Source: Candidatus Woesearchaeota archaeon CG_4_10_14_0_2_um_filter_33_13
GTDB taxonomy: Archaea > Nanobdellota > Nanobdellia > Woesearchaeales > GW2011-AR9
Assembly: GCA_002792115.1 (NCBI GenBank)
Contig: PFNQ01000013.1
Location: forward strand, 7,236 to 71,235
DNA: 64,000 nt
Reading direction: 5' to 3'
Below are positions 4,829-49,607 of this stretch, in pieces (the first letter of the stretch is position 1; each line of letters starts with the position of its first letter). The translations under genes were made by a program, and so were the position numbers. The notes under the pieces are model-generated. The model saw nothing but the letters and a program-made list of their open reading frames with translations. It ran no database searches and was not told the DNA's origin.

Positions 4829-4921
4829 GTTTATTTATTACCAAGATACTTCGTTAAATCACGCCAACATCCTTTATAAATTTTGTTAAGTGAAGTTCTC
4901 CTAAAGTAATCCAAAAGATAA

Positions 4922-6211: not shown

Positions 6212-6244
6212 CTTCTCATAGTAAGAATTCTATTAAATACAATT

Positions 6245-16865: not shown

Positions 16866-18146
16866 TTAATTCTTTTTTTTAAGTGCGTAATAAAAGTAAA
16901 CTATCCCCAAACTAGTACTTAACAAAGTAGCCAATACTGCTCCGGTGATATAATATTTTGGTATCAGGATAACATTGAAGAGTATGTTACTTGCTGTTTG
17001 TAATATCATCCCATAAAAATAGTTCTTTGTTTTTCTTAAGCTTGTTGCAGTGAGTAATGACATATAAACCATGTTTATTGAAAGTAATGTTGATGCTAGG
17101 CAGAAGATGATCCATGAATTAATTAAAAAGGGGTAATCATATATTTTAACAACAATAATGTATGTGATTGGCAGGAGCACCATAAAAGCAAGAGGGGTAG
17201 AAAATAGCAATAGCTTGTTTATTTTCTTAAAAGCAGATCCTTTTTCTTTAAACTGGGTTATTGTTGGGAATAAAACATTAATGAACACACCCGTGATGGT
17301 TGCAATAATTATAGTTGAAGCTAAGAAATAAGCTTGATACATCCCCACACTTTCAGTTCCGTAAAAATAATTTAACATTATCTTGTCAACGTTGGCCAAA
17401 ACTATTCCAGAAACTGAAGCAAAAATAATAAATTGATTATATTGACTAATTTTATTAAATACTTTCTGATTAAAGGTGATCTTTATTTTAGGGATAATGT
17501 ATTTAGTAGTCAAAAAGAAACTAATGATATGTATACTAAATAATGGAAGCAAGATCAAATAAATGCCTCTCCCTGTGAAATATAAATACACAAATGTAAT
17601 AAACAATACACTATGTGATATTATTTGTATTGTAGACAACTCTTTGAACTTTAACAATGTTTTGAGAAAGTTATCAGAATAACTAGATAATGCGACTAGT
17701 AATGCGTAAAAAATACTCAAAATAATTGTACTTATTTCTACTTTAAAAACAATGCTTAACAAACCTTTTATCAAAAATAAAATTATTCCAGAGAAAATAA
17801 AAATTACAAAGTAGGAAATGGTTATTGTTGAGAGTAATTCTGTCTTTTTAACTTGGCTTTCTTCTTCTTGATAAAATTTAGTTAAGGCATTTCCCCCAGA
17901 AAAGATAATTATTGGTAGGCATAATATTGTTCCAATAGATATAATCAAGTTAACTTTACCATATATTGCTGGACCCAAAACTCTGCCACCAATTGTTTGG
18001 ACCATAAATAGTAATCCTTTGGCAAAAAGTGTTGCCAGTAAAACAAGGCCAACATTCTTAAGAAAAGCTTTCTCGCCAGAGCTAATCTCATTATTAAATA
18101 TTTTCTGGTGCAATTTATATATTAAGTTAAGTAATAATCTTTTCAT
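16866..18146 (-). CDS. Oligosaccharide/polysaccharide flippase (Wzx / MOP superfamily)
   Basis: 426-aa polytopic membrane protein with about 12 hydrophobic segments, inside the glycan cluster. Confidence 0.65.
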   Translation of the reverse strand: MKRLLLNLIYKLHQKIFNNEISSGEKAFLKNVGLVLLATLFAKGLLFMVQTIGGRVLGPAIYGKVNLIISIGTILCLPIIIFSGGNALTKFYQEEESQVKKTELLSTITISYFVIFIFSGIILFLIKGLLSIVFKVEISTIILSIFYALLVALSSYSDNFLKTLLKFKELSTIQIISHSVLFITFVYLYFTGRGIYLILLPLFSIHIISFFLTTKYIIPKIKITFNQKVFNKISQYNQFIIFASVSGIVLANVDKIMLNYFYGTESVGMYQAYFLASTIIIATITGVFINVLFPTITQFKEKGSAFKKINKLLLFSTPLAFMVLLPITYIIVVKIYDYPFLINSWIIFCLASTLLSINMVYMSLLTATSLRKTKNYFYGMILQTASNILFNVILIPKYYITGAVLATLLSTSLGIVYFYYALKKKN

Positions 18147-18147
18147 T

Positions 18148-19290
18148 TTAACTCAATCTTTTATAAAATTCTAACGTTCTTTTCCAGCTAAATCTATTTT
18201 TGATACGTTCTTTAATTATTTTTGATGATTTTCTGAACAAATAATTATCTTTAATAAATTGTTTAATTCTAATCTTTATCACTTCTGGTTGATTTGGAGT
18301 AATTAAGTTAATGGTGTTTCCTTCCCCAACAATTTCTTTAGTTCCCCCCACATTCGTAGCAATAATCGGCAGACCCATAGCAGCAGCTTCTAACACAGAA
18401 GTGGGCATCCCTTCAGAGTAAGAAGGGTTGACAAAAATGTCAGTTATTGAAAGCGATTCTATTACTCCTTTTTGATCTTTGTTACCAACAAAAAGCGCAT
18501 TGACTCTTTGTTCTTTAGCTAAGTTCTCTAATTCTTTGCGATAAGGACCATCTCCAACAATCAAAAGAGTTACACCAGAAATACCTTTACAAGCTAAAAT
18601 TAGATCCTGTACTCCTTTAGCATAAATTAATCGTCCAACAAAAGTAATTATTTTGTTTTCTTTTGGAATTCCTAATTTCTGTCTTAAATCTGTTTTAACT
18701 TTTTTGTATTTTGTAACATCAATAGAATTAGGGATGTAAACCACTTTTTTTGGATTTGCTCCCATTTTAATGGCAAAATCACAGCAAGGTTTACTTATGC
18801 CAATAACTTTCCACGCCGATTTAAAGATTAACCTTCCTAAACTTTGATCATAAATCCACGCAATTAATTGTATTAATTTGTTATCATGTTTTACAAAAAC
18901 ATTACCATGTTCCGTATGTATTAGTTTAATTTTATTTTTCTTAGCAAACCACCATCCTAACAGTGTGCTTAAAAAGAACCTTGTTTGTGTGTTAATATAA
19001 TCATATTTCTGATCACCTAATTCTTTTAACATTCTTTTTGTTTGCTTGTTCCATCTAGGAATAGAATAAGTCTTCCCTAAAACACTTTTTGATGGAATGC
19101 GGTATATGTTAATGCCTTGATAGTTCTCATAAGAAGGAAGCCTACCATAATTAAAAGTTAGGACATCGGCTTGTATGCCCCTTTTAATAAGACCCGTGCT
19201 TAGATTTAGGACATAATTTTCTAATCCTCCAGCATAAGGATAAAAATTAGTGGTAAAGAACAGTATCTTCATTTTTCTCTCTTTTCTCAC
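18148..19290 (-). CDS. Glycosyltransferase GT4 (group 1)
   Basis: MKILFFTTNFYPYAGG..; SYSEGMPTSVLEAAAMGLPIIATNVGGTKEIV. The track start is GTG at 19290 (GTGA overlap with the upstream stop). ATG at 19272 (MKILFF) is an alternative. Confidence 0.85.
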   Translation of the reverse strand: MRKERKMKILFFTTNFYPYAGGLENYVLNLSTGLIKRGIQADVLTFNYGRLPSYENYQGINIYRIPSKSVLGKTYSIPRWNKQTKRMLKELGDQKYDYINTQTRFFLSTLLGWWFAKKNKIKLIHTEHGNVFVKHDNKLIQLIAWIYDQSLGRLIFKSAWKVIGISKPCCDFAIKMGANPKKVVYIPNSIDVTKYKKVKTDLRQKLGIPKENKIITFVGRLIYAKGVQDLILACKGISGVTLLIVGDGPYRKELENLAKEQRVNALFVGNKDQKGVIESLSITDIFVNPSYSEGMPTSVLEAAAMGLPIIATNVGGTKEIVGEGNTINLITPNQPEVIKIRIKQFIKDNYLFRKSSKIIKERIKNRFSWKRTLEFYKRLS

Positions 19291-19613
19291 TTTTTCTCTA
19301 AAGCAATTTTTCTAACCATATCTTCCATCTTTAGTTGTAATCTTTTAATATTTGTATAATTATAAAAAGATAGGGCAATCAAGAAAAGTATTCCTAACAC
19401 CGTCAATAAATCAATCGGACGAGACAAAGACATTTTCCTGATGAAATAGTCCAATGTGTATGAGAATAGAGTTAAAAGCATAAAACTTATCCAAACCAAA
19501 AACCACCCGATCATTTCCTTAACAGTAAATTCGTTTTTTCTAAATTTTAAGTACGTAACGTAAAGCATAAAGACACCAAATAAAATTCCTACAATTTGAA
19601 TTGTCGATACCAT
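19287..19613 (-). CDS. Small membrane protein, DUF2304-like (GT2-associated)
   Basis: 108 aa with 3-4 TM segments and an SRPIDLL motif. It sits directly downstream of a GT2, as is typical for DUF2304. Confidence 0.55.
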   Translation of the reverse strand: MVSTIQIVGILFGVFMLYVTYLKFRKNEFTVKEMIGWFLVWISFMLLTLFSYTLDYFIRKMSLSRPIDLLTVLGILFLIALSFYNYTNIKRLQLKMEDMVRKIALEKK

Positions 19614-19614
19614 C

Positions 19615-20271
19615 TTATCTTCTTAACCTCCACACCAGCATATTAAAAGCAATTGTTATTCCATCTAAGAAGGTTGTACCTTTATAATTGTCATGGTATA
19701 TCGTTTGAATGGGGATTTGGGTATATTTCAACTTTGATCTACCAAGATTGGCAATCATTTCTGTTTCTACAGAATAATCACTGGATTGCCATCTGATTAA
19801 CTTATAAGTGTGATCAGTAAATGCCCTGTACCCAGATTGTGTGTCATCTAATTTAATTTTAAACAACAATCTTGTCCAGATATTAAGAAACCAGTTGCCA
19901 AATTTTAATATTAATGGCATGTTTTTTGATCTTTTTCTAACACCAAAAACAAGGTCATAAGTTTCTAAGAGTTTGACGAATGTAGGGATCTCTGCGGGGT
20001 CATGTTGCCCATCAGAGTCCATGACAATAATCTTTTTAGCCCCACACTTTATTGCATAATCACAGCCAGTTTTTAAAGCAGAACCTTTGCCTAAGTTAAT
20101 GATATGTTGTAAAGAATGGACATTTGGAATGGTTTTGATTAATCTGGAAGTATTATCTGTGCTTCCATCATCAATTACAATAATATTTTGGGCATATTTC
20201 TTTGTTTCTTCTAAAGTAAAAACTATCCTTCTTTCTTCATTATAAGCAGGAATAACAATCCATTCATTCAT
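19615..20271 (-). CDS. GT2 glycosyltransferase, polyprenyl/dolichyl-phosphate sugar synthase-like
   Basis: VIPAYNEE, IDDGSTDNT and MDSDGQHDP motifs. 218 aa. TTTATAAA lies 23 nt upstream of the ATG. Confidence 0.8.
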   Translation of the reverse strand: MNEWIVIPAYNEERRIVFTLEETKKYAQNIIVIDDGSTDNTSRLIKTIPNVHSLQHIINLGKGSALKTGCDYAIKCGAKKIIVMDSDGQHDPAEIPTFVKLLETYDLVFGVRKRSKNMPLILKFGNWFLNIWTRLLFKIKLDDTQSGYRAFTDHTYKLIRWQSSDYSVETEMIANLGRSKLKYTQIPIQTIYHDNYKGTTFLDGITIAFNMLVWRLRR

Positions 20272-20356: not shown

Positions 20357-23260
20357 CTAGCAGTTGTAATCAACGATCCACGTTGAAATTTTCCCGCCAG
20401 TAAACTGTTGTACTTCATCAAACTTTTCAAAGCACTTCGTTCCAAGACCATCAAAAAAGAATAACTTGGTAAAGGTGCTGTACGCCAGCGACGTGTCAGA
20501 TAACAACGCAGCATACCCATTACCATTTGGAATCAGAATTAAAGATGAACCGATAGTCTGACCATCAAATTTTTGTTCTTTTAACTCTTTTCCTTGTACA
20601 TAAACTAAAGATGCTGGGGAAACATTTTGTCCGTTATTAGTTCTAACTTTAGCAATGGCTTCATTTAAATTGATATCTAATGTAATGGATCCTTGCTGAG
20701 TATTGATCTGGCAGGTTACATTTGCTGAACTACTATTCTGACATTGATTTAACCCAGAATGATAGCTTGGCCATGAAGCAATCCATTGATCGGCATCTGT
20801 GGTTTGTATTTCATAACGAATCCTGTCTGCTTCATCTTCAGTTAAGGAGAAATTTTTAGTTAAATAATTAATTGCATCATCTTTTTTCATATTTTTTGTA
20901 TTTTGATACATAACTGCTTTATCAAAATCCCAGCTTCCAAAATGTCCCCAAACTCCTGCTTTACCCACCATATCTTCTGAGGTGATGTAATAATCGGTTG
21001 GTGCTTCGCAGTGTGTGTATTGAATAACGGAAGCCACTTGATTAGCATTTAATCCATAATCATTTAAGGTTTCAATCGCAGCTTCTTTCTTTTCTACGAT
21101 TATTTTGTTGATTATCTTAATCTCTTTTGGCGTGTCATTGAAAATATTATCTAACTCTATGAATGCACTGTTTTGCCCGCAATTTAACATTCTGATTATG
21201 CCTACTGTTGTTTTTTCATCGCTTGTCAAAAGTGATTTCCCGACCCAATGGGCATCCCATCCAACTTGCATACCTCCATCAAAGGTTGTTGGTCGCTCAG
21301 CTATCGCCATAAACCAGTATCCAAAATCCCACCACGAAGTTATCACTGCTTCAGCGGGAGCTTCGCTATTGATCTTAGTTAAAGTGTTATGCCAAGCATC
21401 ATTCATCGCTGGTACAGAATTGTATGCAGTTGAATATCCTGCCATGCTTGGTTGAATTAATAGCACTCCTAACAATAAAAATACAACCACCTTTGAAATA
21501 GTTAAATTAAGATTTAGTTCTTTATTAGTCCAATTACTAATATAACTCCAAGCTAATCCCAAGAATGCACCGAATAATATTGCCACTATCGGTGCAACCA
21601 TTAAAATAAACCTAACTCCCCTTGTTGTAGTATATAATGCTATAGCTAACCAAAAAGATAAAATTAATGCAATCATCAAATTATTGTTTGATTTATCTTT
21701 AACATTTCTTAACATCAATAAAATAATTCCTACTATCGCTAGAGTAAAAATTAGTTTTCCTCCTACTTGGCTGATTACTTGTGAGAATGGAGCAACATTA
21801 AGCTCTGCTACTGTAGTTAAGATATTTGGCCATAAGGAATCTATTGCTACTGCCTTTAAGTGGATTAATGAATTTATTGGTTCAAACAATCCGCTGTAAA
21901 AAGAGTTAAACGAACTAAATATAGAAACAAAAAGTCCTGAACTTATGAGGTAGGTTCCAAATAGGGACACATTTGAGAAAAAATCATCTTTCTTAATTAG
22001 AGTTTTAAGAGCCTTAGAATTTCTAATTAATTCATAAGCAAAGTATGAAAGCATAGATACTGCAAATATGGAAAAGAAATACCACCAAGCTCCCCACACA
22101 AAACTAAGTAATCCTGTTGCTAAACCAGCTAAGACAGTCCAACCTAATTTCTTCTTTAAATCCTTGCAAGTAATCGCTTCAATTAATAACCACAAAATCA
22201 GTATTGGAAAGAAGACAACGTAAACATCTGTGTCTGAACTTTCTCCGGTGGTTCTGGAAACAAAAAAAGCTGAGACTGCAATTAAAATAGCAACAAAAAA
22301 TCCACCAACATTATTTTTAGTGATTTTTTTACCGATAAAGAATGCAGGAATAACTGTTAATGCTGAGAAGATAGTTCCTATTAAAAAGAAACTAAACATC
22401 AATGGTACGTCTGAAAAAGAACTTAAAAATCGATGTAAAAATGCTCCAAACCAGGTGTGAAAATTTCCCCCTTCTGGTGAACCAGTTGGGTAGGCTCGAT
22501 AAGAATCATAATACTTTCCATCTTTTATTGAATTACCCGGATGACCATTTTCTAATCTATATTCTGTTTGTCTGTAAAAATAATAAGGGTCAATTCCTAA
22601 CAGATATAAAGTTCCCTGATCATCTCTAAACTGATCTTTATATTGTTGTGATACTTGCTTAATATCATTATTAACCTGGTCCTTGTTTTTCTCTTTTAAT
22701 TTTTGCAATTCATTCTGGACTAATGCATCTCTGTTTTGTTGTGGCAAGTTAGGATACTGTTGATTGATCTGGGCGGTAACTTGATTTTGATAAAAATTAT
22801 TAACTGTATTGTCGGCCCATTCATCGGTTATTGACATTCTTAATGGCATGGTTCGTAGATAAACAGAAGCAAACATAGCAATTAAAATAAATAATGCGGG
22901 GATGATCCATTTAGCATTAGTTTTAGCAAAAGTGGTAATTTTTGAAAAATCTACAGAAAGTTCGTCATCATTAACTTCTTTTTTGTGATGTTTATGTTCC
23001 GGATGGGAATGTTTATCTTTATCAGAAGAAGTTAAGCTTTTAAAAAATCGTTTAGCTTTATTTTTTATCTCAGAAAAATCTATTGATAAATCCTCATTAT
23101 CCTTATGAAACTCTTTTTTAACAACTTCTACTTTCCCAAGAGTGATCGTTTTTTTGTCACTATGATGTTGCAAAGTGTCTTCTGTTTTTGTTTCTTCCTG
23201 CTCCTCAGTATTAGAATCAATCTTAATATCTTTAGCCAATTTTCCACCCCAATAATCCAT
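20357..23260 (-). CDS. aglB: Archaeal oligosaccharyltransferase AglB (STT3 family)
   Basis: 967 aa and polytopic. It has the WWDYG-type motif SWWDFGYW (encoded at 21314-21334) and the EL1 motif GIDPYYFYRQ. There is an unusual charged N-terminal extension of about 117 aa. Confidence 0.9.
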   Translation of the reverse strand: MDYWGGKLAKDIKIDSNTEEQEETKTEDTLQHHSDKKTITLGKVEVVKKEFHKDNEDLSIDFSEIKNKAKRFFKSLTSSDKDKHSHPEHKHHKKEVNDDELSVDFSKITTFAKTNAKWIIPALFILIAMFASVYLRTMPLRMSITDEWADNTVNNFYQNQVTAQINQQYPNLPQQNRDALVQNELQKLKEKNKDQVNNDIKQVSQQYKDQFRDDQGTLYLLGIDPYYFYRQTEYRLENGHPGNSIKDGKYYDSYRAYPTGSPEGGNFHTWFGAFLHRFLSSFSDVPLMFSFFLIGTIFSALTVIPAFFIGKKITKNNVGGFFVAILIAVSAFFVSRTTGESSDTDVYVVFFPILILWLLIEAITCKDLKKKLGWTVLAGLATGLLSFVWGAWWYFFSIFAVSMLSYFAYELIRNSKALKTLIKKDDFFSNVSLFGTYLISSGLFVSIFSSFNSFYSGLFEPINSLIHLKAVAIDSLWPNILTTVAELNVAPFSQVISQVGGKLIFTLAIVGIILLMLRNVKDKSNNNLMIALILSFWLAIALYTTTRGVRFILMVAPIVAILFGAFLGLAWSYISNWTNKELNLNLTISKVVVFLLLGVLLIQPSMAGYSTAYNSVPAMNDAWHNTLTKINSEAPAEAVITSWWDFGYWFMAIAERPTTFDGGMQVGWDAHWVGKSLLTSDEKTTVGIIRMLNCGQNSAFIELDNIFNDTPKEIKIINKIIVEKKEAAIETLNDYGLNANQVASVIQYTHCEAPTDYYITSEDMVGKAGVWGHFGSWDFDKAVMYQNTKNMKKDDAINYLTKNFSLTEDEADRIRYEIQTTDADQWIASWPSYHSGLNQCQNSSSANVTCQINTQQGSITLDINLNEAIAKVRTNNGQNVSPASLVYVQGKELKEQKFDGQTIGSSLILIPNGNGYAALLSDTSLAYSTFTKLFFFDGLGTKCFEKFDEVQQFTGGKISTWIVDYNC

Positions 23261-23438: not shown

Positions 23439-23498
23439 ATGATACTTGAAGCAGGTGTTCGCCGATAAGTTTTAATATTGGTTAAATTTAAATCACTT

Positions 23499-23987
23499 AT
23501 GGCTGTTTGTGAAATGTGTGGAAAGGATGCGTATTTATCTAGTGTAAACGTTGAAGGGGTAGAACTAAAAGTTTGCCCTAATTGTAGTAAGTATGGTACC
23601 AAAAACCCTTCCCTTGAGCGTAGATTTAACTCGCGAGACCGATTTAAACAAGATAAGTCTTCAAATCGGCAAGAAGTTGAATGGAAGATCATTGAAAACT
23701 TCTCTATTTTACTTAAGAAAGCGAGAGATGAGAAACATTTTACTCAAGAACAATTTGCAAAGTTTATCAATGAACGGGAAAGCGTATTGCAAAAATGGGA
23801 GAATGGCGATCTTAAACCTAGAATTGATGTAGCAAGGAAACTAGAACAAATTTTAAATCTGAACTTAGTTGTTAAGGACAACAAAGACACTAGTGAAGGT
23901 GATGAAGACTTAACCTCAAATCAAAAGAATAAAAAGGCTGCAGAAGAGTTCACGTTAGGAGACTTTATCAAAATTCGTAAAAAGTAA
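23499..23987 (+). CDS. mbf1: Archaeal multiprotein-bridging factor 1 (zinc ribbon + HTH)
   Basis: MAVCEMCGKDAY..VCPNCSKYG zinc ribbon followed by an HTH (FTQEQFAKFINERESVLQKWENG). The track ORF begins at TTG 23478. ATG 23499 is preferred because a TATA-like box lies 21 nt upstream. Confidence 0.85.
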   Translation: MAVCEMCGKDAYLSSVNVEGVELKVCPNCSKYGTKNPSLERRFNSRDRFKQDKSSNRQEVEWKIIENFSILLKKARDEKHFTQEQFAKFINERESVLQKWENGDLKPRIDVARKLEQILNLNLVVKDNKDTSEGDEDLTSNQKNKKAAEEFTLGDFIKIRKK

Positions 23988-24022: not shown

Positions 24023-24880
24023 TCATAAATATATGATTGATAAGGTTAATCCCACCCATATTGCCATCCCTATAACTAAAGGCTTATTTTTAAATACCCT
24101 TTCCGGATGTCTAGCAACATCAGAACCATTATTTATTAAGTTCAAGAATCCAAAGATTAAATAGATCCCTAAAGGGACAGTATAGATGAGAGTTGGGTGT
24201 TCACTAAGAAAGGAGTATAAACAATACGAAACAATTAATAATATCGTAGAGAAGTTCACTAATTGGTTCGTCAGCTGTTTGTTGTAATGTTCTAATATTG
24301 CTCTTGTTCTCTTACCATCGGTTTTCATTAAGCTTAAATCTGCCTGCCTTTTTCCTACAACCAAAAACAATGCTAAGAAAAAAGGGCACAAAATCAACCA
24401 CGGAGAAACCCAAACATCAACTGCTAAAGCTCCAGATAACGCTCGTAAGGCAAACAAACTAGCAATAGTCAGGATGTCTGCGAACAAAACATTCTTTAAG
24501 TAAAGAGTATAAATCTGCGTTAGTACAAATAACAAGATTACAATTAATAAAAATGTTAAGTTAATTGATTTTGCTATCAACAAACCGATTATTAGTAAAA
24601 GCAATAATGCCAAAATTGCTTTATTTAAGCCAATCTTTCCAGAAGCAAGAGGACGGTTTTTCTTCTCTGGGTGCAGGGCATCTTTTTTTCTGTCAACTAA
24701 ATCATTAATAATATATCCTGCCGAAGAAACAAAAGATAGTGAGAAGAAGGCTAAAATGGAAATTAAGAATAGTTCTCCATCAAAAAGTTTCTCAGAAAAG
24801 ATAATCGCCAGGAATACAACTAGGTTTTTGTACCATTGTCTGATTCGCATCAGGTTCAAATAATCTTTGATTTTAGTCAT
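24023..24880 (-). CDS. UbiA-superfamily enzyme resembling polyprenyl-phosphate phosphoribosyltransferase (DPPR synthase-like)
   Basis: N-terminal MRIRQWYKNLVVF (RxxQWxKN) and NDLVDRKKDALHPEKKNRPLASG motifs. 285 aa with about 8 TM segments. 8-nt overlap with the upstream GT-C gene. Confidence 0.7.
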   Translation of the reverse strand: MTKIKDYLNLMRIRQWYKNLVVFLAIIFSEKLFDGELFLISILAFFSLSFVSSAGYIINDLVDRKKDALHPEKKNRPLASGKIGLNKAILALLLLLIIGLLIAKSINLTFLLIVILLFVLTQIYTLYLKNVLFADILTIASLFALRALSGALAVDVWVSPWLILCPFFLALFLVVGKRQADLSLMKTDGKRTRAILEHYNKQLTNQLVNFSTILLIVSYCLYSFLSEHPTLIYTVPLGIYLIFGFLNLINNGSDVARHPERVFKNKPLVIGMAIWVGLTLSIIYL

Positions 24881-26309
24881 TTTCTAGAGGAAGATAAATC
24901 TTATAATTGCACGTTTTAATGGTTTTATTAAAGATTTCTTTGTTCTCAATCTCAATTTGGGCCAATAATTCTGCCTTTTCAGATACACATTCGTTATCCT
25001 TAGGCTTACAAATTAGATCACAATCATTGATAAAAATAAGTTGGTATGGTTCTTCTAATTTCCCGTAGATTTTTGCTGCAAATTCCATGCCGTCTAAAGT
25101 GATAATCTTATTATCTAAAAAAGAAACAAAAGATGGGTCTGACGAGACAATTGTTCCAGTAATATTTTTTTCGGTAATAATCTGTTGAATCTCTGTCCTG
25201 AAGGCCGGAGCACTTTCAAAACTAAGGTTAGCTGGCATTGGTACTAGTAATAGCAATAATACAACAAGCAAAAATGCTTTTGGTTTAATAAATGGCTTTT
25301 GCTGTTGTTTTAAATTCTCATAAATCATTAGAATTACTTTTACAGCAAAGAATGCTAAGAAGGGTATAATTATCACCAAGTATCGTGGCTCCTTTCTTGG
25401 AACAATAAAAATAAAATAAACTAGAGTGAGGATCGTTATTGTTAGCGTGATTATACTATGACCTGTTACATCTATTTTCCTCCTAAAGAAAAGATATCCA
25501 TAATAAATTGAGAATAGGAATATTGGGTTACTTAAAAAGAAATGTAAGAAGTAGTAACTCCAACCTTGGCCATATAACCAGGTTGCTGTTCCTACAATCA
25601 TTGATCCAGACAAGAATGGTTCCAAAATGTTTCCGTACTTATACTGATTTAAGATTAAGTATGGGATTAATGGTAATAAAAAACCAACGCCCAAAAAGAA
25701 GATATTTTTAGTCTTCCCCCATAACGTTTCTTTGTTGAATAAAAGAACAATTGCTACTCCTGCAATGTACGTCCAAAGCGTAAATTTAGTTAAGAAAGCC
25801 AAACTTAATAATACTCCAGCGAGAAATATCTTTGTTTTATGTTGATGACCTAATAACAAATAAAGGCCAAGTAACCCAAAAGTCATCGCCAATGGTTCAG
25901 TAAGAATCATTCCGGTATGCATCAGGAATATAGGAGTTACACTAAAGATTAATGATGAGAAGAATGCGGTTTTCTTGTCAGAGACCTGTTTAACAATCTT
26001 GTAAAAAGCAGCAATTGCGATTAGAGAAAATAATAGGTCCAAAATTTTTCCAAAAGCAATTGGGTTTAACCCTAGTTTCCAAATTAAACCGATTAAGAAT
26101 GGATGGATCAACGGACGAAATGATTCCCAAATTCCAATTTCTCCTCCAGTGAAGATATATTTGCCCATACCAATATACACGTGGGCGTCCCACCACAATG
26201 GCCAATTAATTGATAAGTAAAAGATTCTGATCAGAAAACTAAATACTAGAACAAAAAAAAAAGGCTTTTGTTTAATTAGGTTAAACATTCTTTGCAAGTA
26301 TTGTTTCAT
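24873..26309 (-). CDS. GT-C fold membrane glycosyltransferase (ArnT/PMT-like)
   Basis: 478 aa: about 11 TM segments plus a C-terminal soluble domain. The first loop reads WPLWWDAHVY. Confidence 0.65.
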   Translation of the reverse strand: MKQYLQRMFNLIKQKPFFFVLVFSFLIRIFYLSINWPLWWDAHVYIGMGKYIFTGGEIGIWESFRPLIHPFLIGLIWKLGLNPIAFGKILDLLFSLIAIAAFYKIVKQVSDKKTAFFSSLIFSVTPIFLMHTGMILTEPLAMTFGLLGLYLLLGHQHKTKIFLAGVLLSLAFLTKFTLWTYIAGVAIVLLFNKETLWGKTKNIFFLGVGFLLPLIPYLILNQYKYGNILEPFLSGSMIVGTATWLYGQGWSYYFLHFFLSNPIFLFSIYYGYLFFRRKIDVTGHSIITLTITILTLVYFIFIVPRKEPRYLVIIIPFLAFFAVKVILMIYENLKQQQKPFIKPKAFLLVVLLLLLVPMPANLSFESAPAFRTEIQQIITEKNITGTIVSSDPSFVSFLDNKIITLDGMEFAAKIYGKLEEPYQLIFINDCDLICKPKDNECVSEKAELLAQIEIENKEIFNKTIKTCNYKIYLPLEND

Positions 26310-26312: not shown

Positions 26313-27050
26313 TTAATTTTCTTCTGTTAGACAGATCTCAGAGTTTTCTAGTGAGTTACAGATCTGTTCTTGTAACTGTTCTTTACTTACAACACCTTCA
26401 AACTTTCTGTTATCAATGATTAGGGTGGGATATTTCTTAACAGTAAATTGTTCCATTACAATATCTACCATTGGTTCACTGTTCTTTAAATCAACATTAA
26501 TTGGAAAGACTAATACTTGTTCCCCAAATTTTTTCTTGAAGTATGTAAGTATGGTTCCTTGGTTTGGACAAGAAGGACAGTCAGCGGAGTAGAAGTAAAT
26601 AATTGGTACAATATCTAAATTACATTTTTTCTTACTTTCTAAGGCTAATAACCAGTAACGGAGGTTGTCGATGGCATAACGCCGCATGATAATGGTTTTT
26701 CTGGCATCAGAAACTTTTTGTTCTTCTTCATAAGCAACAACCTCACTAAGTGATTCAGAAAGGTCGACAACGGCCTCCTTAAGAGTTGTAGATAAGATTG
26801 GACAATTATCGGCATTATTAAATGCGTTGAGATAAAGATATTGCATCTGTAAACTTAAGTATTTAGTTTCTTGTGCTAAATTAACGTCTTCTATTAAGTT
26901 ATATCTATAATCATCTAAAACAAACCCTAATGTTATTCCTAATGAGAATATTAACAAAGTTATCACTCCTGCGATAATATACTTATCCTTACTTATTCTT
27001 CTAAAATTATTTTGATCATTAGTTTTGTCTTGTTTTTTTTCACTTACCAT
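26313..27050 (-). CDS. Membrane-anchored thioredoxin-fold protein (CxxC)
   Basis: One N-terminal TM (IIAGVITLLIFSLGITLGFVL) followed by FYSADCPSCPNQG and a Trx-like region (VFPINVD..KYPTLII). Confidence 0.6.
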   Translation of the reverse strand: MVSEKKQDKTNDQNNFRRISKDKYIIAGVITLLIFSLGITLGFVLDDYRYNLIEDVNLAQETKYLSLQMQYLYLNAFNNADNCPILSTTLKEAVVDLSESLSEVVAYEEEQKVSDARKTIIMRRYAIDNLRYWLLALESKKKCNLDIVPIIYFYSADCPSCPNQGTILTYFKKKFGEQVLVFPINVDLKNSEPMVDIVMEQFTVKKYPTLIIDNRKFEGVVSKEQLQEQICNSLENSEICLTEEN

Positions 27051-28333
27051 TTTAGTTTTTTACCTCTAGCAAATTCAAATAGTGATAATAGTAATATCAC
27101 TCCTTTAAGCAAATAATAAAAAAAGAAATAGGGGATTAAAGGAATAAATCCAAACTTAGTCATTCTTTCATTAGCATTTTTATGGGCTAAATAAAAAAAA
27201 GATGCACCAACGACAAAAATAAAGATAATTAAAAAACTGCGCCTAAAATCCATCTGCAAGAAATTAATCAAGTTAAATTTGAAACTTAATGTTTTAAGAT
27301 AAGGTATTATGTTAAATTTTATTGCAATCAAATTCTTTACTCGATTAATCATTGGCAAGAAGATTAAATAAACCGCAATAGTTATCCCTGTTATTGCCAA
27401 TATGTATCCCGCAACATTCTTAATCATCTGCATCATGCCGAAATCACCGTACTTTTTATTGGCGATTAATTCCTTGTATTGGTTAACACAAATTATACTC
27501 CCCAAATACCATCTCCTTCTTTGTCGGTAAAAGGGTTTAACTTCTTTTGGTGCAGTAGTATGAACATAACCATCAAAACATTGCTTTATTTTGTAATGAT
27601 GTTTTTGTAGTCTATAAGCAATCTCCTGATCTTCAGTTATGCTTTTAACATCAAATCCTCCTAATTCTCGGATGATCTTTGTTCTGTATAATGAGAATGG
27701 GCCTGGTGCCACATATAAAGAATCTAATCTGCTAGAAAGTCTTGCAATCAAGATAATTACTAAGTACTCTAACCACTGCACACGTTGTAGTAAATTCTTT
27801 GGTTTGTCAACTTTCATTGCGGGGGTAACAATAGCTAATTTGGGATCATTTTCTTGATCATAGATATTTAACATTTTTCTTAATGTCTGTGGATCTACAA
27901 AAGAATCGGCGTCCAGACAAGCAAAAAAATCTCCCTTCGTTAATTCTAAGGCCTTGTTCATAGATGCAGCCTTTCCTATGTTTTTGTGAGAGATTAACTG
28001 AAAATGTTTTTTATTTTGAATGTATTCCGCGATTATTTTTTTTGTATCGTCCTTAGAACCATCATCAATAACAATAACCTCTAATTTATCTTTTGGGTAT
28101 TCTATTTCATTGATTGATTGTAGTGTTCTCAGTATTGTTTTCTCTTCATTGTACGCAGGGACAAGAATAGAGACAAATGGAAATTTGTTTATTTGAGTGG
28201 AAGATTTTTCTTTTTTGAAAAATTCTCGATTATCCAGATAAACCAATAATAAGAATATTGAAAAGTACAATGATATAGCATACACAATCCATAATAGCAT
28301 ATTTACAAATATATTCATCAGTTTGTACTCCAA
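27044..28333 (-). CDS. Processive family-2 glycosyltransferase (membrane-integrated beta-glycan synthase; PgaC/NodC/cellulose-synthase-like)
   Basis: VPAYNEE, IDDGSKDDT, LDADSF, ITEDQE and the RQRRRW (QxxRW) motif. TM segments lie on both sides of the catalytic domain. Confidence 0.8.
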   Translation of the reverse strand: MEYKLMNIFVNMLLWIVYAISLYFSIFLLLVYLDNREFFKKEKSSTQINKFPFVSILVPAYNEEKTILRTLQSINEIEYPKDKLEVIVIDDGSKDDTKKIIAEYIQNKKHFQLISHKNIGKAASMNKALELTKGDFFACLDADSFVDPQTLRKMLNIYDQENDPKLAIVTPAMKVDKPKNLLQRVQWLEYLVIILIARLSSRLDSLYVAPGPFSLYRTKIIRELGGFDVKSITEDQEIAYRLQKHHYKIKQCFDGYVHTTAPKEVKPFYRQRRRWYLGSIICVNQYKELIANKKYGDFGMMQMIKNVAGYILAITGITIAVYLIFLPMINRVKNLIAIKFNIIPYLKTLSFKFNLINFLQMDFRRSFLIIFIFVVGASFFYLAHKNANERMTKFGFIPLIPYFFFYYLLKGVILLLSLFEFARGKKLKW

Positions 28334-28344: not shown

Positions 28345-29751
28345 TTAGTCAGCTTTCCCAAACACCCACACCTCAGAATCTTCGTTGGAATGGACTAATT
28401 TAAATCTTTCGTTTTTAAGTAAGAAAAGCAGACCTTGTTCTTTGGGCAAGATTTCTTTCATATATTTGTTAACATATATAATAGAAATGTTGTGTTCTTC
28501 AAGTATTGGAAAAAGTTCGGTAATATACAATGATGCTAATGCTTTATACGTTAGATCTAAGGAAGAAGAATCTTTTTGTTTAAACAACGTTTCCCTTCCA
28601 GAAAAATAATTGATAATAAATGTATTCTCCGGCAAAGATAAGACCTTGCCTTCTTGAGGTATGTTTTGCTGAACCCAATACAAAGATTCTATGTCTCCAG
28701 CAGTTGGTCCATTTTCTTTGACTCTATCTAAATATGTTATTGTGGAGAAAAGCAGACCTAACACTAATAACAAAAACGTGAACTTTTTAAGAGAAATTAA
28801 GTTCCAATCTCGTTGAAATAGTTTTATAATTCCTGTGGCTGCAAAGAAAGAAGTTAACAGGCTTAAATGAAAAATTGCTTGGCTGTTTAACAAATATGCT
28901 CCCAAGGCGAGAGGTAAGAAAAGGTAGAAAATGTAAAAATTTTTCTTCTTCCAAGTTGTGGTTAAACCAATTAACGCTAAGGCTAAGGTAAATATTTTTA
29001 TGCCACTAACACTACCAAAGTCAGATATTAAACTGGCAATCTTCATCTGAAAGTTGAAAGGACCTAGAATGAATGGAATCTTTAAAACCAAATAATTAAA
29101 TAAAGCAATTATTGTAATTGAAGAGATAATCACATAGCCCTGCAAACTAAAATCTTTTTTTATCAAATATAAGTAGCAAGCTAAAATCAGAATCATAAAT
29201 ATGCTACTATATAGGTCAAAAAAAGTTGCCAAAAGAAAAGGAATTATTGATAAATGGTGTTGCCAATTTTCCTTTTGGTAAAAGTAAAATCCTAATAATA
29301 CAAGAGTAATGTAAAAGGAATATGCTGATAATGTACTAAATGTGTAAATAAATGTTGGAGATAGTGATACCATTAACAAAAAGAAGAAAATAACTTTATC
29401 TGAGATAGTTGTTTTTTCAGTTATTTTGAAGAAAAGCCATAATGAAACGATGGCTAGTCCTAATGGCAGTAATATTAACAAGCTCGTGGAAAATAATTCT
29501 GTCGCCAACTGTAACGGCAGATAATAAAATGTGTTAATGTCCCAAGATTGTGCCTTTAAGAGATGGTAATAACTTTCTTCTCCCATCAATATTGGTTTGC
29601 CCAATGAATGATTATACAGTGAAGGAAGTAACAAGACTACTAAAAATAAACATATGAAAAATGTTCTTTGGTTTTTTAGAAAAAAATTGAATATTTTATT
29701 GTTACTGCTAATAATGGTTTGTTCAATTTTAGTATCTTCGGTTTGACTCAT
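28345..29751 (-). CDS. Polytopic membrane protein, GT-C/STT3-like architecture without WWDYG
   Basis: 468 aa. The first loop MGEESYYHLLK resembles the STT3 EL1 motif. There are about 11 TM segments and a C-terminal soluble domain of about 130 aa (VLSLPENTFIINYFSGRE). Confidence 0.5.
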   Translation of the reverse strand: MSQTEDTKIEQTIISSNNKIFNFFLKNQRTFFICLFLVVLLLPSLYNHSLGKPILMGEESYYHLLKAQSWDINTFYYLPLQLATELFSTSLLILLPLGLAIVSLWLFFKITEKTTISDKVIFFFLLMVSLSPTFIYTFSTLSAYSFYITLVLLGFYFYQKENWQHHLSIIPFLLATFFDLYSSIFMILILACYLYLIKKDFSLQGYVIISSITIIALFNYLVLKIPFILGPFNFQMKIASLISDFGSVSGIKIFTLALALIGLTTTWKKKNFYIFYLFLPLALGAYLLNSQAIFHLSLLTSFFAATGIIKLFQRDWNLISLKKFTFLLLVLGLLFSTITYLDRVKENGPTAGDIESLYWVQQNIPQEGKVLSLPENTFIINYFSGRETLFKQKDSSSLDLTYKALASLYITELFPILEEHNISIIYVNKYMKEILPKEQGLLFLLKNERFKLVHSNEDSEVWVFGKAD

Positions 29752-29752: not shown

Positions 29753-31243
29753 TTATTTTCCGATCAATTTACATTTTATTAAATAAATTTTTGTTTCTTG
29801 ATTATAAATCAATTCAAAACAATTCTTATCTAAGTAAGGTAATTCTTCAATTCCATACCTCTGTTTTGATTTTGAGGTTATTACAATATAATTAATTCCA
29901 TACGCATCGTAAATGCTTAGGGCCTGTGTTTGGAATTTAGCAGTAAACAGAGCGTTCAAATTATCAAATCTTTGATTTACTTTTTTTATTAAATTAAACT
30001 GGTCATCCATCAAATTTTTTCTGTTTCCATAATAGCTTACCAAGCTGCCCTCTCTAAGATTAGATGCCACCACGCTTTTTTCAGGAGTATTTTGCTTTAA
30101 CCAGACAAAACTATTTACTTGTTCTGTTGTTGGAGTATCTTGATCAAGAGAAAAACTTAATGCTGGGGGAACAATTGTCAAAAGTAATATGATTGTTAAA
30201 ATTAAAGTTATCTTTTTAGTGTAATTGTAGAATTTTGTTTTTTTAATATAATCTGTAAGGTCAACATAAAATACTGAAAACAATATTGCTAAGATTATGG
30301 CAAAAAAACTTAATGATAATTTGAATTCTATTAGCTTTAACCATGATAATATCGTTGTTGAAATGACAAAACTAATCAATAAAAATGCCTTTTGATTTTT
30401 AAGATTAAACAAAGAATTATAGACCACATATATTCCTGTAACAAAGGGAATTATACCAACTAAAACTATTGCCTGTGCTAATGATAATTGTGGATAGTAT
30501 TGAGCTAGAATCTGTTGTGGGATGTTTTGCCAAATAAAGTTTATCCCTTCTGTCAATAATGTCTGTTTGTAAAATAGAAATTGCGTCCAAAGGTAAAGGA
30601 AAAAAGAGAAGATAATGACTTCTGTTTCAGCCCGGTTTATTCTTTTCTTTTCAATTGCTAACAAAACCAAATAGATTAGGTATCCTCCTAAAATTAAGAT
30701 TGTCCCAGAGCTGGTTAAGGAAAGGCAAAACATGGAAAAGATGTACAAATACAAGTAAAATTCTTCTTTAATATTTAAGAAGGCATAGATTGAAAGAAAC
30801 AGAAGCGGCAAAAATAGTGTTTGTGGCGTAAATGAATCTGTTGAGTATAATATTGGTAGGAATCCAGCTATTACGGCCGATAATATTGATGCTTGCTGGT
30901 TATCTGTTAATTTCTTGCTTATCAAATATACTAATGGAACAATTAAAGCGATTAACAAATTTGGTAAAATTTTGGCAACTAGTTCTAAAGGAAGGATTAG
31001 AGCAAAAAATGCTGCAAGATAGTGAAATAATGGTAGAAATACATTAGTTCTTCCTCCATAAGATAGAGGGTCATTGTATAAAGGCAATCCTGTTGAAGAA
31101 ATATGTTCCACCTGTCTAAGATGAAAGTAAGAATCGTATGTTAAGTTTGGCATAAAAAAAGCAAGGACTAATCTTATCGTTAAAGTTAGCATAAATATTG
31201 CCAATAACCAGTATTTGGTATTTTTACCCATAAACATTAACAA
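29753..31243 (-). CDS. Polytopic membrane protein, GT-C/STT3-like architecture without WWDYG
   Basis: 496 aa. The first loop is NLTYDSYFHLRQ. There are about 12 TM segments and a C-terminal soluble domain (VVASNLREGSLVSYYGNRKNLMDD). Several Met codons occur near the start (MLMFMGKN), so the start is uncertain. Confidence 0.5.
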   Translation of the reverse strand: MLMFMGKNTKYWLLAIFMLTLTIRLVLAFFMPNLTYDSYFHLRQVEHISSTGLPLYNDPLSYGGRTNVFLPLFHYLAAFFALILPLELVAKILPNLLIALIVPLVYLISKKLTDNQQASILSAVIAGFLPILYSTDSFTPQTLFLPLLFLSIYAFLNIKEEFYLYLYIFSMFCLSLTSSGTILILGGYLIYLVLLAIEKKRINRAETEVIIFSFFLYLWTQFLFYKQTLLTEGINFIWQNIPQQILAQYYPQLSLAQAIVLVGIIPFVTGIYVVYNSLFNLKNQKAFLLISFVISTTILSWLKLIEFKLSLSFFAIILAILFSVFYVDLTDYIKKTKFYNYTKKITLILTIILLLTIVPPALSFSLDQDTPTTEQVNSFVWLKQNTPEKSVVASNLREGSLVSYYGNRKNLMDDQFNLIKKVNQRFDNLNALFTAKFQTQALSIYDAYGINYIVITSKSKQRYGIEELPYLDKNCFELIYNQETKIYLIKCKLIGK

Positions 31244-47324: not shown

Positions 47325-47846
47325 TTATTCTCCTTTAAACTCAACTAAAGTGAAGATATCATAACCTTGCAACTTTTCTTTTCCTTTTAATTCATGGAGG
47401 CCTATTACAAATGCTACACTAACAACTTTTCCACCTAACTTTTCCACTAATTTACAGGCAGCACAAATAGTTCCGCCGGTGGCAATCAAATCATCAATAA
47501 CCAGAACATTATCTCCTTCATTAATGGCATTCTTATGGATTTCTATTTGATCTGTTCCGTATTCTAACTCATATTTTTGAGAAATTGTTTCTCCAGGTAA
47601 TTTTCCTTTCTTACGAATTAACACTAATGGTAACTTTAATTCACGAGCCAAAGCAGCACCAAAAATAAATCCTCTAGATTCAATAGCCGCAATTTTTGTA
47701 ATTTCCTTATTTTGGTATTGTTCTTTAAATATTTCAATACACTGATTGAATGCTTCTGGATTCTCTATTAATGAAGTAATGTCTCTAAACATTATTCCTG
47801 GCTTAGGCCAATTTGGAATTGTTCTAATTGATTCTTTAAGATTCAT
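47325..47846 (-). CDS. apt: Adenine phosphoribosyltransferase
   Basis: VLVIDDLIATGGT PRPP motif. Start taken at MNLKESIRTIPNWPKPGIMFRDIT. The longer track ORF (to 47906) would overlap mtnP. Confidence 0.88.
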   Translation of the reverse strand: MNLKESIRTIPNWPKPGIMFRDITSLIENPEAFNQCIEIFKEQYQNKEITKIAAIESRGFIFGAALARELKLPLVLIRKKGKLPGETISQKYELEYGTDQIEIHKNAINEGDNVLVIDDLIATGGTICAACKLVEKLGGKVVSVAFVIGLHELKGKEKLQGYDIFTLVEFKGE

Positions 47847-47847
47847 T

Positions 47848-48609
47848 TTAATTCTCTTTAATTCTTGGTATCGTATTAACCAAAAGGTTAACCACCTTAC
47901 CAACATTTTCTTTAAAAACTTTCAAAACTTCTTCCCAAGTAACTGGGACAACATCATTAAATAAACAATCATAATCTGTACTCATTGCTATCGTGGCGTA
48001 AGGAATATCAATTTCATTGGCGAGGATACATTCTGGTGCAATGGACATGTTAATAACATTTGCCCCCCATAATGAGAACATTCTTGATTCCGCTTTTGTG
48101 CTGAAACGTGGACCTTCAATAGTTATTACCGTCCCTTTTGGATGATGTTTTAAATTTAATTCTTGACAAGTGTTGATCAAAAGGTTCCTTAACTCATTGT
48201 TAAATGGTGTAGCCATTGAGGTATGTATCATCTTTCCTGGTTCAAACGAATCATAAAAACTCAATTTTCTTAATCTAGTGAAGTCAATAAACTGATCCAA
48301 GATTACTAAATCACCACGTTCAATTTCTTTTTTTAAAGAACCACAAGCAGTTGTAGATAAAATGTGTGTGCAACCAATATCTTTAAGTGCTTGGATATTA
48401 GCTTGATTATTAACCTGTGTTGGCGGGAGATTATGGTCTCTTCCGTGTCTTGCTAGTAAAACAACATCTACCCCTTTTATCTTTCCACATTTTAATTGAG
48501 AAGAAGGTTTGCCAAATTTTGTTTCAACATCAACATCTTTTGCTTCTTGTAATATCTCTGGGTTATCTAATCCTGAGCCGCCAATAATTCCAATTTTAAT
48601 CATGTGCAA
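47848..48609 (-). CDS. mtnP: S-methyl-5'-thioadenosine phosphorylase (PNP/MTAP family)
   Basis: IGIIGGSGL N-terminus; ..HGR..PP..VN..ANI..LK..G; 253 aa. Confidence 0.85.
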   Translation of the reverse strand: MHMIKIGIIGGSGLDNPEILQEAKDVDVETKFGKPSSQLKCGKIKGVDVVLLARHGRDHNLPPTQVNNQANIQALKDIGCTHILSTTACGSLKKEIERGDLVILDQFIDFTRLRKLSFYDSFEPGKMIHTSMATPFNNELRNLLINTCQELNLKHHPKGTVITIEGPRFSTKAESRMFSLWGANVINMSIAPECILANEIDIPYATIAMSTDYDCLFNDVVPVTWEEVLKVFKENVGKVVNLLVNTIPRIKEN

Positions 48610-49606: not shown

Positions 49607-49607
49607 T

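Follow-up and report, generated by a model that had tools for sequence, protein, structure and literature searches.

Introduction

Lipid-linked pentofuranose donors derived from phosphoribosyl pyrophosphate (PRPP) serve the mycobacterial cell wall and are a drug target there. Since 2024 such donors have also been known from bacterial O-antigens and pilins (PMC11127046). In these bacterial systems a polyprenyl-phosphate phosphoribosyltransferase (PPPRS), a phosphatase, a flippase and a GT-C glycosyltransferase add ribofuranose (Ribf) from undecaprenyl-phosphate-Ribf outside the membrane, as established by experiment; addition of a short-chain dehydrogenase/reductase (SDR) gives xylofuranose (Xylf), homologs of DprE1/DprE2 accompany arabinofuranose (Araf), and absence of an epimerase corresponds to Ribf (PMC11127046). 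Here we analyse the locus of a 285-amino-acid (aa) UbiA-family protein in a 64-kb stretch of contig PFNQ01000013.1 (hereafter, the window), from an uncultured DPANN archaeon (Candidatus Woesearchaeota). The gene ends a tightly spaced operon on the minus strand, positions 31243 to 24023, with the order GTC1, GTC2, GT2 synthase, membrane thioredoxin, GTC3, UbiA, and the system is most likely, by analogy, the archaeal equivalent of the three-component pentofuranose systems of bacteria. The class of the enzyme is already known and includes a solved structure, the logic of the system was published for bacteria in 2024 (PMC11127046), and the name that GenBank gives to the exactly matching protein PIZ52035.1, 'decaprenyl-phosphate phosphoribosyltransferase' (DPPRS), is already correct; the unusual element is the operon partnership of three GT-Cs, a processive GT2 and a thioredoxin. 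The features of the operon are as follows.

29753..31243, minus strand: GT-C paralogue GTC1, 496 aa, first gene of the operon; PMT_2 match of 26.6 bits and similarity to the STT3 N-terminal region
28345..29751, minus strand: GT-C paralogue GTC2, 468 aa; no Pfam match, about 9-11 hydrophobic segments, related through hhalign
27044..28333, minus strand: predicted processive GT2 synthase, 429 aa, PgaC/NodC/chitin-synthase-like; DAD, ED and QRRRW motifs and C-terminal membrane helices
26313..27050, minus strand: membrane-anchored thioredoxin-like protein, 245 aa, with a CPSC motif; Thioredoxin and TraF matches
24873..26309, minus strand: GT-C glycosyltransferase GTC3, 478 aa, PMT_2/GT39-like; from Pfam, AlphaFold (AF2) and Foldseek
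24873..24880, minus strand: 8-nt overlap ATGACTAA of the GTC3 stop and the UbiA start, read directly
24023..24880, minus strand: UbiA-fold protein, putative polyprenyl/dolichyl-phosphate 5-phosphoribosyltransferase (DPPRS/PPPRS-like), 285 aa, PIZ52035.1; from Pfam, NCBIfam, PDB, fold and tree

The Mycobacterium tuberculosis system, Rv3806c with Rv3807c (PAP2) and Rv3805c (AftB, a GT-C), represents the same enzyme branch, and Rv3806c is the best solved relative of the window protein by sequence and by fold. As in M. tuberculosis, the genes for synthase and GT-C overlap, and in most relatives of the window locus the synthase gene overlaps a PAP2 gene too (the Rv3806c/Rv3807c arrangement). The two systems differ in that the window protein is only 24-25% identical to Rv3806c, the window gene order is reversed (GT-C before UbiA), the window has neither PAP2 nor DprE1/DprE2, ribose rather than arabinose is expected, and the carrier is probably dolichyl, not decaprenyl, phosphate; furthermore, the mycobacterial GT-Cs are Emb/Aft-type enzymes with carbohydrate-binding modules, whereas GTC3 is a small PMT_2-type protein. 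Among other annotated clusters, Tsukamurella (Mycobacteriales) has PAP2, DPPRS and AftB genes that all overlap, Lactococcus has the order GT-C (questionable)-DPPRS-HAD-GtrA, and Rhizobium has the order HAD-UbiA-GtrA-DprE1-like-DprE2-like. The initial annotation of the window, made from sequence by a model, had tied the enzyme to the GT-C arabinosyltransferases of Corynebacterineae; this holds for that group and is too narrow as a description of the enzyme, because Pseudomonas, Citrobacter, rhizobia and others also have equivalents, characterised or annotated (PMC11127046).

In Citrobacter youngae O1/O2 the corresponding components are ORF15 (PPPRS-PRP), ORF14 (MATE flippase) and ORF12 (GT-C, family GT136) (PMC11127046). 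Like the window locus, the Citrobacter three-component systems encode PPPRS and GT-C together, with the pentofuranose predicted to be added outside the membrane, after polymerisation, from a lipid-monophosphate donor; pentofuranose systems with several GT-Cs have also been noted (PMC11127046). Unlike the window system, they have a bacterial host, an O-antigen locus, a HAD-type PRP domain or gene, and a MATE flippase; the window, in which no flippase of the MATE, GtrA or SMR type is recognisable, has an archaeal host and a PMT_2-like GT-C, and its operon also encodes a membrane thioredoxin and a GT2 synthase of the QRRRW type. The closest named relatives that we found, at 162-166 bits and approximately 31% identity, are annotated, uncharacterised DPPRS-like proteins of haloarchaeal megaplasmids (Haloterrigena sp. 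KLK7, WP_339106049.1; Halostagnicola larsenii, WP_049954310.1), where, as in the window, the DPPRS-like gene stands beside GT-C genes. Unlike the window, these clusters contain a PHP phosphatase, an SDR epimerase and LPG_synthase_TM (flippase-like), and are without the module of GT2 synthase and thioredoxin. On both plasmids (loci L098 and L101, respectively), a GT-C annotated as 'DolP-mannose mannosyltransferase' and the SDR are divergent from the genes for DPPRS, PHP and LPG_synthase_TM.

Family placement of the UbiA protein

Profile searches, structure comparisons and a distance tree give concordant placements. The 285-aa open reading frame (ORF) matches Pfam UbiA at 102.5 bits, and its best match among all NCBIfam families is the DPPRS model NF008977, at 225.5 bits, with residues 4-284 aligned to positions 2-288 of the 297-position model; two further DPPRS models, NF008978 and NF008976, give 156.9 bits (cutoff 207) and 110 bits (cutoff 474), and the HAD-fused model PRK08238 gives 178 bits. 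Models for digeranylgeranylglyceryl-phosphate synthase (DGGGPS), the UbiA-superfamily enzyme that any archaeon synthesising its own lipids should have, remain far below cutoff (NF009522, 56.7 bits, cutoff 353; NF009521, 46.2 bits, cutoff 296), and models of the haem O synthase, UbiA and MenA types score below those. Against the PDB, the single sequence scores 90 bits with Rv3806c (8j8j), 39.5 with DGGGPS and 23.6 with AfUbiA, and a 26-member family profile scores 177.7 bits with Rv3806c (residues 17-297), 57.1 with AfUbiA and 50.6 with DGGGPS, the last over the first half only. The AF2 model (predicted local distance difference test score, pLDDT, 89.2) has a UbiA-type fold with about nine transmembrane helices, and the nearest solved structure is a phosphoribosyltransferase: the top Foldseek match is 8j8j, with a template-modelling (TM) score of 0.83 and a root-mean-square deviation of 3.4, followed by AfUbiA at 0.72-0.74 and DGGGPS at 0.64-0.67. 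Phmmer ranks the DPPRS references above the outgroups: haloarchaeal DPPRS-like proteins 162-166 bits, Lactococcus 118, Rhizobium HAD-UbiA 109, Tsukamurella 102 and Rv3806c 90, vs. 31 for E. coli UbiA and 22-27 for full-length haloarchaeal DGGGPS.

A neighbour-joining (NJ) distance tree with 300 bootstraps, with E. coli UbiA, AfUbiA and three full-length haloarchaeal DGGGPS as outgroups, separates the family and the DPPRS references (Rv3806c, Tsukamurella, Lactococcus, Rhizobium and the haloarchaeal DPPRS-like proteins) from all five outgroup sequences in 275 of 300 bootstraps (92%). An earlier NJ tree was discarded: it contained DGGGPS only as a 158-residue M. jannaschii fragment, its distances were saturated, and it placed DGGGPS inside the family with 4% support. 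The DPPRS branch as a whole comprises 1,361 clusters at 50% identity with E of 1e-30 or better.

The active site of Rv3806c has been defined by cryo-EM: pyrophosphate is contacted by R22, K87, R90, K143, Y138 and K208, Mg2+ by N73 and D77, ribose by N73 and Q135, and the 5-phosphate by K28, Y70 and Y157 (PMC10994848). In the window protein, nine of the twelve PRPP-contact residues are identical: R12, K18, Y56, N59, D63, K73, R76, Y124 and K129, corresponding, in the same order, to R22, K28, Y70, N73, D77, K87, R90, Y138 and K143 of Rv3806c. All nine are invariant or at least 90% conserved among 26 to 33 homologs. The position of Y157 is occupied by F143, and the same exchange of Tyr for Phe occurs in some mycobacteria (PMC10994848). 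The window protein contains both motifs that the initial annotation had quoted as hallmarks of the branch (MRIRQWYKNLVVF, residues 11-23; NDLVDRKKDALHPEKKNRPLASG, residues 59-81), and the extension of the first Asp-rich motif, HPEKKNRP, aligns with HPTKRFRP of Rv3806c (HPxK..RP). In true prenyltransferases a second Asp-rich motif holds the second Mg2+ of the prenyl diphosphate. The sequence of this motif is DRDDD for E. coli UbiA and KDVEDIAGD for DGGGPS; in the window protein it is replaced by VGKRQADL, aligned to AGKRYAEL of Rv3806c (GKRxxDL). The retained PRPP contacts, together with the exchange of the second Asp-rich motif for GKR, are the hallmarks that distinguish a phosphoribosyltransferase from a prenyltransferase. 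Archaeal DGGGPS (PDB 6m31) thus shares with the window protein the superfamily fold and the first Asp-rich motif, but has the second motif, scores only 22-57 bits and lies on the other side of the 92% split.

We conclude that the 285-aa protein, as judged from its sequence, is a member of the polyprenyl-phosphate phosphoribosyltransferase branch (Rv3806c type) and not a DGGGP synthase. The initial annotation had made the same assignment, which the models, PDB scores, fold and tree bear out; it had named a phylogenetic position with the DGGGP synthases as the outcome that would count against it, and the tree groups the protein with the DPPRS references instead.

The GT-C partner and its conservation

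GTC3, the gene immediately upstream, corresponds to PIZ52036.1, annotated in GenBank as 'hypothetical protein COY27_01625'. It matches Pfam PMT_2 at 46.5 bits and Glyco_transf_22 at 30 bits; a sequence search against the PDB gave no match. Its AF2 model (pLDDT 92.6) has a GT-C_A fold, with STT3, ALG9 and ArnT as best Foldseek matches (TM 0.55-0.66) and AftA, AftB, Pmt4, PimE and Emb proteins as further matches, and this fold points to a lipid-phosphate-sugar-dependent transferase while being silent on which sugar is used. W40, D41 and Y45 of the first outer loop are invariant among homologs, and the C-terminal outer domain contains four conserved cysteines, C430, C434, C441 and C467. Homologs form approximately 110 clusters, all from Woesearchaeota- or Nanoarchaeota-type (DPANN-type) sources.

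The UbiA start was described in the initial annotation as overlapping the GT-C stop by 8 nt, and reading the junction gives exactly this: ...GAA AAT GAC TAA ends GTC3, and ATG ACT AAA opens UbiA in the +1 register. In alignments the homologs start at this Met as well, so the UbiA start is not an artefact. From the overlap, which is conserved in part, GTC3 and UbiA may be translationally coupled.

To place the pair in a wider context we compared 97 loci, gathered through exact look-ups and through scans of genomes and metagenomes; the scan of genome contigs, with the single UbiA protein, yielded 7 loci, and the metagenome scan, with an alignment, yielded the 80 loci used for statistics. The whole six-gene operon is present in 20 loci, on Woesearchaeota-type contigs, with UbiA identities of 47-68%. 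Of the 58 loci with enough upstream DNA, 23 have GTC3 immediately before UbiA, with gaps of -58 to +45 nt and with overlap in 11 of the 23. A GT-C is encoded within five genes of UbiA in 19/21 relatives at 50% identity or higher, and GTC3 homologs of 35-36% identity still belong to this operon, together with UbiA and PAP2. Pairing of UbiA with GT-C is also found in Mycobacteriales, Lactococcus, haloarchaea and Parvarchaeota. The pairing of donor synthase and GT-C that had been proposed from the window alone is thereby supported by conserved gene order: a GT-C in 19 of 21 close relatives, PAP2 in 12 of 20 operon copies, and the same linkage in other lineages.

The other operon genes

The three GT-Cs are related to one another, with hhalign values of 99.5% (GTC1-GTC2), 97.8% (GTC1-GTC3) and 97.0% (GTC2-GTC3). 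The GT2 synthase matches Glycos_transf_2 at 121 bits and PgaC_IcaA at 176.5 bits (below cutoff), has cellulose and chondroitin synthases as PDB matches, and contains the conserved residues D141-A-D143, E234-D235 and Q271..W275. The combination of DAD, ED and QRRRW is the signature of processive synthases of the chitin, NodC or hyaluronan type. The gene is kept in all operon copies, and its product (27044-28333) is predicted by these motifs to be a processive polysaccharide synthase in a DPANN archaeon. The thioredoxin-like gene, likewise found in every operon copy, encodes one N-terminal transmembrane segment, a conserved C158xxC161 and four other conserved cysteines. GTC1, like GTC3, has conserved cysteines in its outer C-terminal part (C475 and C491). 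The conserved cysteines of GTC3 and GTC1 suggest that the thioredoxin-like protein is an operon-encoded extracytoplasmic helper of disulfide formation.

The neighbours of the operon are a RadA-like gene in divergent orientation and a convergent MBF1-like gene, beyond which lie genes for AglB, a PpgS-like GT2, DUF2304, GT4 and Wzx. The MBF1-like gene is a conserved flank in relatives, where PAP2, when present, lies between it and UbiA.

23478..23987, plus strand: MBF1/HVO_2718-like helix-turn-helix protein, convergent, at the downstream end of the operon; HTH_3 and HVO_2718 matches
19615-20271, minus strand: PpgS-like GT2, NF058614 PpgS 103 bits; second lipid-phosphate-sugar donor synthase, in the AglB cluster
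19287-19613, minus strand: DUF2304 small membrane protein, 73 bits; flippase or helper candidate

The PpgS-like GT2 gene, followed by DUF2304, resembles the mycobacterial Rv3631/Rv3632 pair. In four loci (L060, L075, L076 and L084) the UbiA gene lies exactly between a PpgS-like GT2 gene and a DUF2304 gene, and from this placement DUF2304 may be a helper or flippase for lipid-phosphate sugars.

Phosphatase, flippase and epimerase

A PAP2 phosphatase of approximately 150 aa, with its catalytic motif intact, is encoded right after UbiA, usually with overlap, in 12 of the 20 operon copies; it is not at this position in the window or in its nearest relatives (L017-L022, L025 and L026). In locus L014 the PAP2 gene occupies 10864-11334. 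At the PAP2 position after UbiA, three of the window's closest relatives encode a geranylgeranyl-reductase-like FAD protein of 364-367 aa (L019, 10917-12011; L020 and L037, 10919-12022), which may saturate the polyprenol carrier (dolichol formation). Searches for absent genes covered the 64-kb window of this genome. Tblastn with queries from related loci found no homolog of PAP2, DprE1-like, DprE2-like, GtrA, HAD-IB, PHP, LPG_synthase_TM, EamA-half or amine-oxidase-type FAD proteins, the lone exception among the queries being a match to a generic nucleotide-sugar SDR at 6245-7210; the Rhizobium DprE1-like and DprE2-like proteins and a Tsukamurella FAD oxidoreductase gave nothing in the window at E below 0.1. 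The earlier statement that the window holds neither a DprE1/E2-like epimerase nor PAP2 is thus confirmed. DprE1/E2, the 2'-epimerase pair, is present in none of the 20 operon copies, and Pfam scans of the window ORFs found no MATE domain.

Several genes elsewhere in the window were considered for the missing steps. Unlinked phosphatase candidates are a HAD protein (33884-34585) and a CobC-like histidine phosphatase (16194-16793). The HAD protein is no more than a tentative idea for the missing phosphatase: it co-occurs with operons without PAP2, but this co-occurrence is confounded by phylogeny and by the ends of loci, and the protein is not of the HAD-IB PRP type. The SDR at 6245-7210 was considered as an ORF13-like epimerase and rejected for want of support: the gene is far from the operon, its surroundings are of the nucleotide-sugar kind, and its best-scoring families are GalE and dTDP-glucose dehydratase. 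It is only a conjecture that DUF2304 (19287-19613) and Wzx (16866-18146) substitute for the flippase.

In other lineages, the genes found beside UbiA are as follows.

Bacteroidales and Lactococcus: HAD-IB; in Lactococcus also GtrA
Rhizobium: HAD fusion, GtrA, DprE1-like, DprE2-like
Haloarchaea: PHP, LPG_synthase_TM, SDR, GT-C
L029: alkaline-phosphatase-like
L047, L050, L052, L061, L064, L072: SDR, amine-oxidase-type FAD enzyme, PAP2 or PHP, two EamA-half

The proteins that fill the accessory steps thus differ between lineages and are unrelated: PAP2, HAD, PHP or an alkaline-phosphatase-like protein in the phosphatase slot, GtrA, EamA halves or LPG_synthase_TM in the flippase slot, and DprE1/E2, a lone SDR, or an amine oxidase with an SDR in the epimerase slot. 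This variety is useful in annotating UbiA/GT-C loci. In the six loci of the L047 type, whose UbiA homologs have 44-48% identity, the set may comprise a non-orthologous analogue of DprE1/DprE2 and an ArnE/F-like flippase: that is, a complete pathway to lipid-P-arabinose or a similar donor, assembled from different parts.

Proposed pathway and alternative explanations

From the computed family placement, active-site conservation, fold and operon structure we infer a pathway with its substrates, dephosphorylation, flipping, GT-C user and acceptor. The UbiA protein would act at the cytoplasmic face of the membrane, transferring ribose-5-phosphate from PRPP to a polyprenyl monophosphate (in an archaeon most likely dolichyl monophosphate) and yielding lipid-P-beta-D-ribofuranose-5-P. 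The 5-phosphate would be removed by PAP2, encoded after UbiA in most relatives, or, in the window genome, by an unlinked phosphatase; a flippase would turn lipid-P-ribofuranose outward; and GTC3, possibly with GTC1 and GTC2, would add ribofuranose to an acceptor outside the membrane, which could be the polymer that the operon's own QRRRW-type GT2 synthase exports or the glycan of a surface glycoprotein. No epimerase is linked, and therefore the sugar is most likely ribofuranose, not arabino- or xylofuranose. The following gene is an indirect sign that the cell has PRPP, since its product uses PRPP.

47325..47906, minus strand: adenine phosphoribosyltransferase (Apt); NF002632 243.3 bits, at cutoff, and TIGR01090 237 bits, above cutoff

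As an explanation of the whole locus by analogy with the bacterial systems, a phosphoribosyl-lipid synthase with ribofuranosylation by GT-C is the reading that we favour, with moderate confidence. Several observations weigh against it. The NF008977 score is 8.5 bits below the curated cutoff of 234, and two PRPP contacts are not conserved in the window protein (Q135 is replaced by T121 and K208 by Ala). The window is without a linked phosphatase, flippase or epimerase, so that two of the three components are missing here. The PMT_2 family is typical of hexose and aminoarabinose transferases, and the fold of GTC3 is nearer to STT3, ALG9 and ArnT than to AftA and AftB, with no special affinity to arabinofuranosyltransferases. 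The PpgS-like lipid-P-sugar synthase, only 4 kb from the operon, could supply one or all of the GT-Cs. Among relatives at 40-50% identity, a recognisable GT-C is nearby in 9 of 30 (16 of 30 if large polytopic unknowns are included). Finally, in locus L109 a GTC3 relative of 28% identity accompanies two GT2 (QRRRW-type) synthases, with no UbiA gene.

In one alternative, UbiA and the GT-Cs are operonic neighbours rather than donor synthase and user: the GT-Cs would use a dolichyl-P-hexose or -hexosamine from the PpgS-like GT2, or would act on the polymer of the GT2 synthase, and the phosphoribosyl-lipid would be, for example, a primer or anchor of the polymer or a membrane lipid head group. The PMT_2/GT39-like character of the GT-Cs, with STT3, ALG9 and ArnT as structural neighbours, the presence of a PpgS-like synthase and DUF2304 in the adjacent cluster, and the arrangement in L109 are all consistent with this, as are L060, L075, L076 and L084, in which no GT-C immediately adjoins the UbiA gene beside PpgS-like GT2 and DUF2304. 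However, every characterised product of the enzyme class is consumed by GT-C enzymes (PMC11127046, PMC10994848), linkage of UbiA with GT-C recurs independently in Mycobacteriales, Lactococcus, haloarchaea and Parvarchaeota, and GTC3 and UbiA stay adjacent down to 35% identity of GTC3; we consider an arrangement of mere neighbours rather unlikely. The identity of the sugar is the subject of another alternative, in which lipid-P-ribose is epimerised by unlinked enzymes, to Araf by a DprE1/E2-like pair or an analogue, or to Xylf by a GalE-like SDR, with the GT-C being an arabino- or xylofuranosyltransferase, as in the precedents of mycobacteria, Pseudomonas pilin glycosylation and Citrobacter O2. 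Related loci do place epimerase-type genes nearby (an SDR and an amine-oxidase-type FAD enzyme near PAP2/PHP, UbiA and EamA-half genes in the six L047-type loci, an SDR in the haloarchaeal clusters, DprE1/E2-like genes in the Rhizobium cluster), a GT-C can accept Ribf and Xylf donors alike (PMC11127046), the epimerase searches covered 64 kb of the genome, and the SDR at 6245-7210 is 25% identical to the L047-type SDRs. Against this, the operon has no such gene, and neither has any of its 20 copies in the window's clade, the tblastn searches of the window with DprE1-like, DprE2-like and FAD amine-oxidase queries gave nothing, and the SDR, at a distance of 17 kb, is surrounded by genes for nucleotide sugars and heptose and has its best scores as GalE or dTDP-glucose dehydratase. 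On balance an epimerised donor seems doubtful.

Least probable by far, and effectively refuted by the sequence, is an ordinary prenyltransferase of the UbiA superfamily (a DGGGP synthase, or a quinone or haem prenyltransferase) whose likeness to the DPPRS motifs is superficial. The UbiA fold and the first NDxxDxxxD motif are common to the whole superfamily, and over 154 columns a partial DGGGPS fragment from M. jannaschii is 31% identical; that figure, however, comes from the conserved N-terminal half and from an equally AT-rich organism, and is not upheld with full-length sequences. The DGGGPS models far below their cutoffs, the absence of the second Asp-rich motif, the presence of 5-phosphate and pyrophosphate contacts, the split in 275 of 300 bootstraps, and the TM score of 0.83 to Rv3806c vs. 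0.64-0.67 to DGGGPS all argue for the phosphoribosyltransferase assignment.

Implications

If phosphoribosyl-lipid synthesis and ribofuranosylation by GT-C are the function of the locus, the conserved operon predicts ribofuranose, or a pentose derived from it, on surface glycans of many Woesearchaeota, of related DPANN and of some haloarchaea. The envelopes of uncultured Woesearchaeota and other DPANN mediate attachment to hosts. A more specific and rather speculative extension is that DPANN Woesearchaeota build an envelope polysaccharide made by the GT2 synthase, decorated or extended with ribofuranose outside the membrane by the three GT-Cs, whose outer domains would be disulfide-bonded through the thioredoxin, and supplied by a dolichyl-P donor from PRPP; in the PAP2-less lineage of the window, equally tentatively, ribose-5-phosphate could take the place of ribofuranose. 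Such a polymer, if real, would be the first pentofuranan-type wall polymer in Archaea, with the first archaeal lipid-linked pentofuranose donor; our literature search on archaeal DPPRS, on DPANN glycosylation with UbiA and on archaeal pentose glycans found nothing relevant. The finding alters no general principle. Cultured haloarchaea with the conserved DPPRS cluster offer a tractable place to test archaeal pentofuranosylation.

Other features of the window

The G+C content is approximately 32% along the whole window, and archaeal markers within it include TFIIB, RadA-like, MBF1-like, AglB/STT3 and AMP phosphorylase genes; Rfam and tRNA scans of the window gave no matches. AglB/STT3 (20357-23260, minus strand, 967 aa) has an N-terminal extension of approximately 110 residues, in which His, Lys, Asp and Glu are abundant, ahead of its first membrane helix; the AglB homolog of locus L014 has C-terminal rotamase (PPIase) domains instead. 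At 3247-7210 (minus strand) lies a set of the GDP-D-glycero-D-manno-heptose type, comprising a SIS isomerase, a GHMP kinase, a fusion of nucleotidyltransferase and GmhB-like phosphatase, and the SDR discussed above, inside a 31-kb glycan island with GT4s, FkbM and other methyltransferases, a B12-radical SAM protein, an FGGY kinase, GDPD and the CobC-like histidine phosphatase.

Nucleoside-salvage genes at 35378-36856 (plus strand) and 47325-51068 (minus strand) encode AMP phosphorylase (569 bits, above cutoff), Apt, methylthioadenosine phosphorylase and S-adenosylhomocysteine hydrolase, together with a PfkB kinase resembling ribokinase or ribose-1-phosphate kinase; these genes bear on the supply of ribose phosphate and PRPP. 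A predicted surface protein of 1114 aa (38775-42119, minus strand) contains lamin-tail, Nup98-type S59 autopeptidase, CARDB and Big_9 domains. A 666-aa ORF at 56955-58955, with no Pfam match, precedes an ORF of more than 1671 aa (58987-64000, plus strand) that runs past the window end; with a hydrophobic segment at its N terminus and a domain of the purple-acid-phosphatase-N/fibronectin-like kind, the latter probably encodes a giant surface protein.

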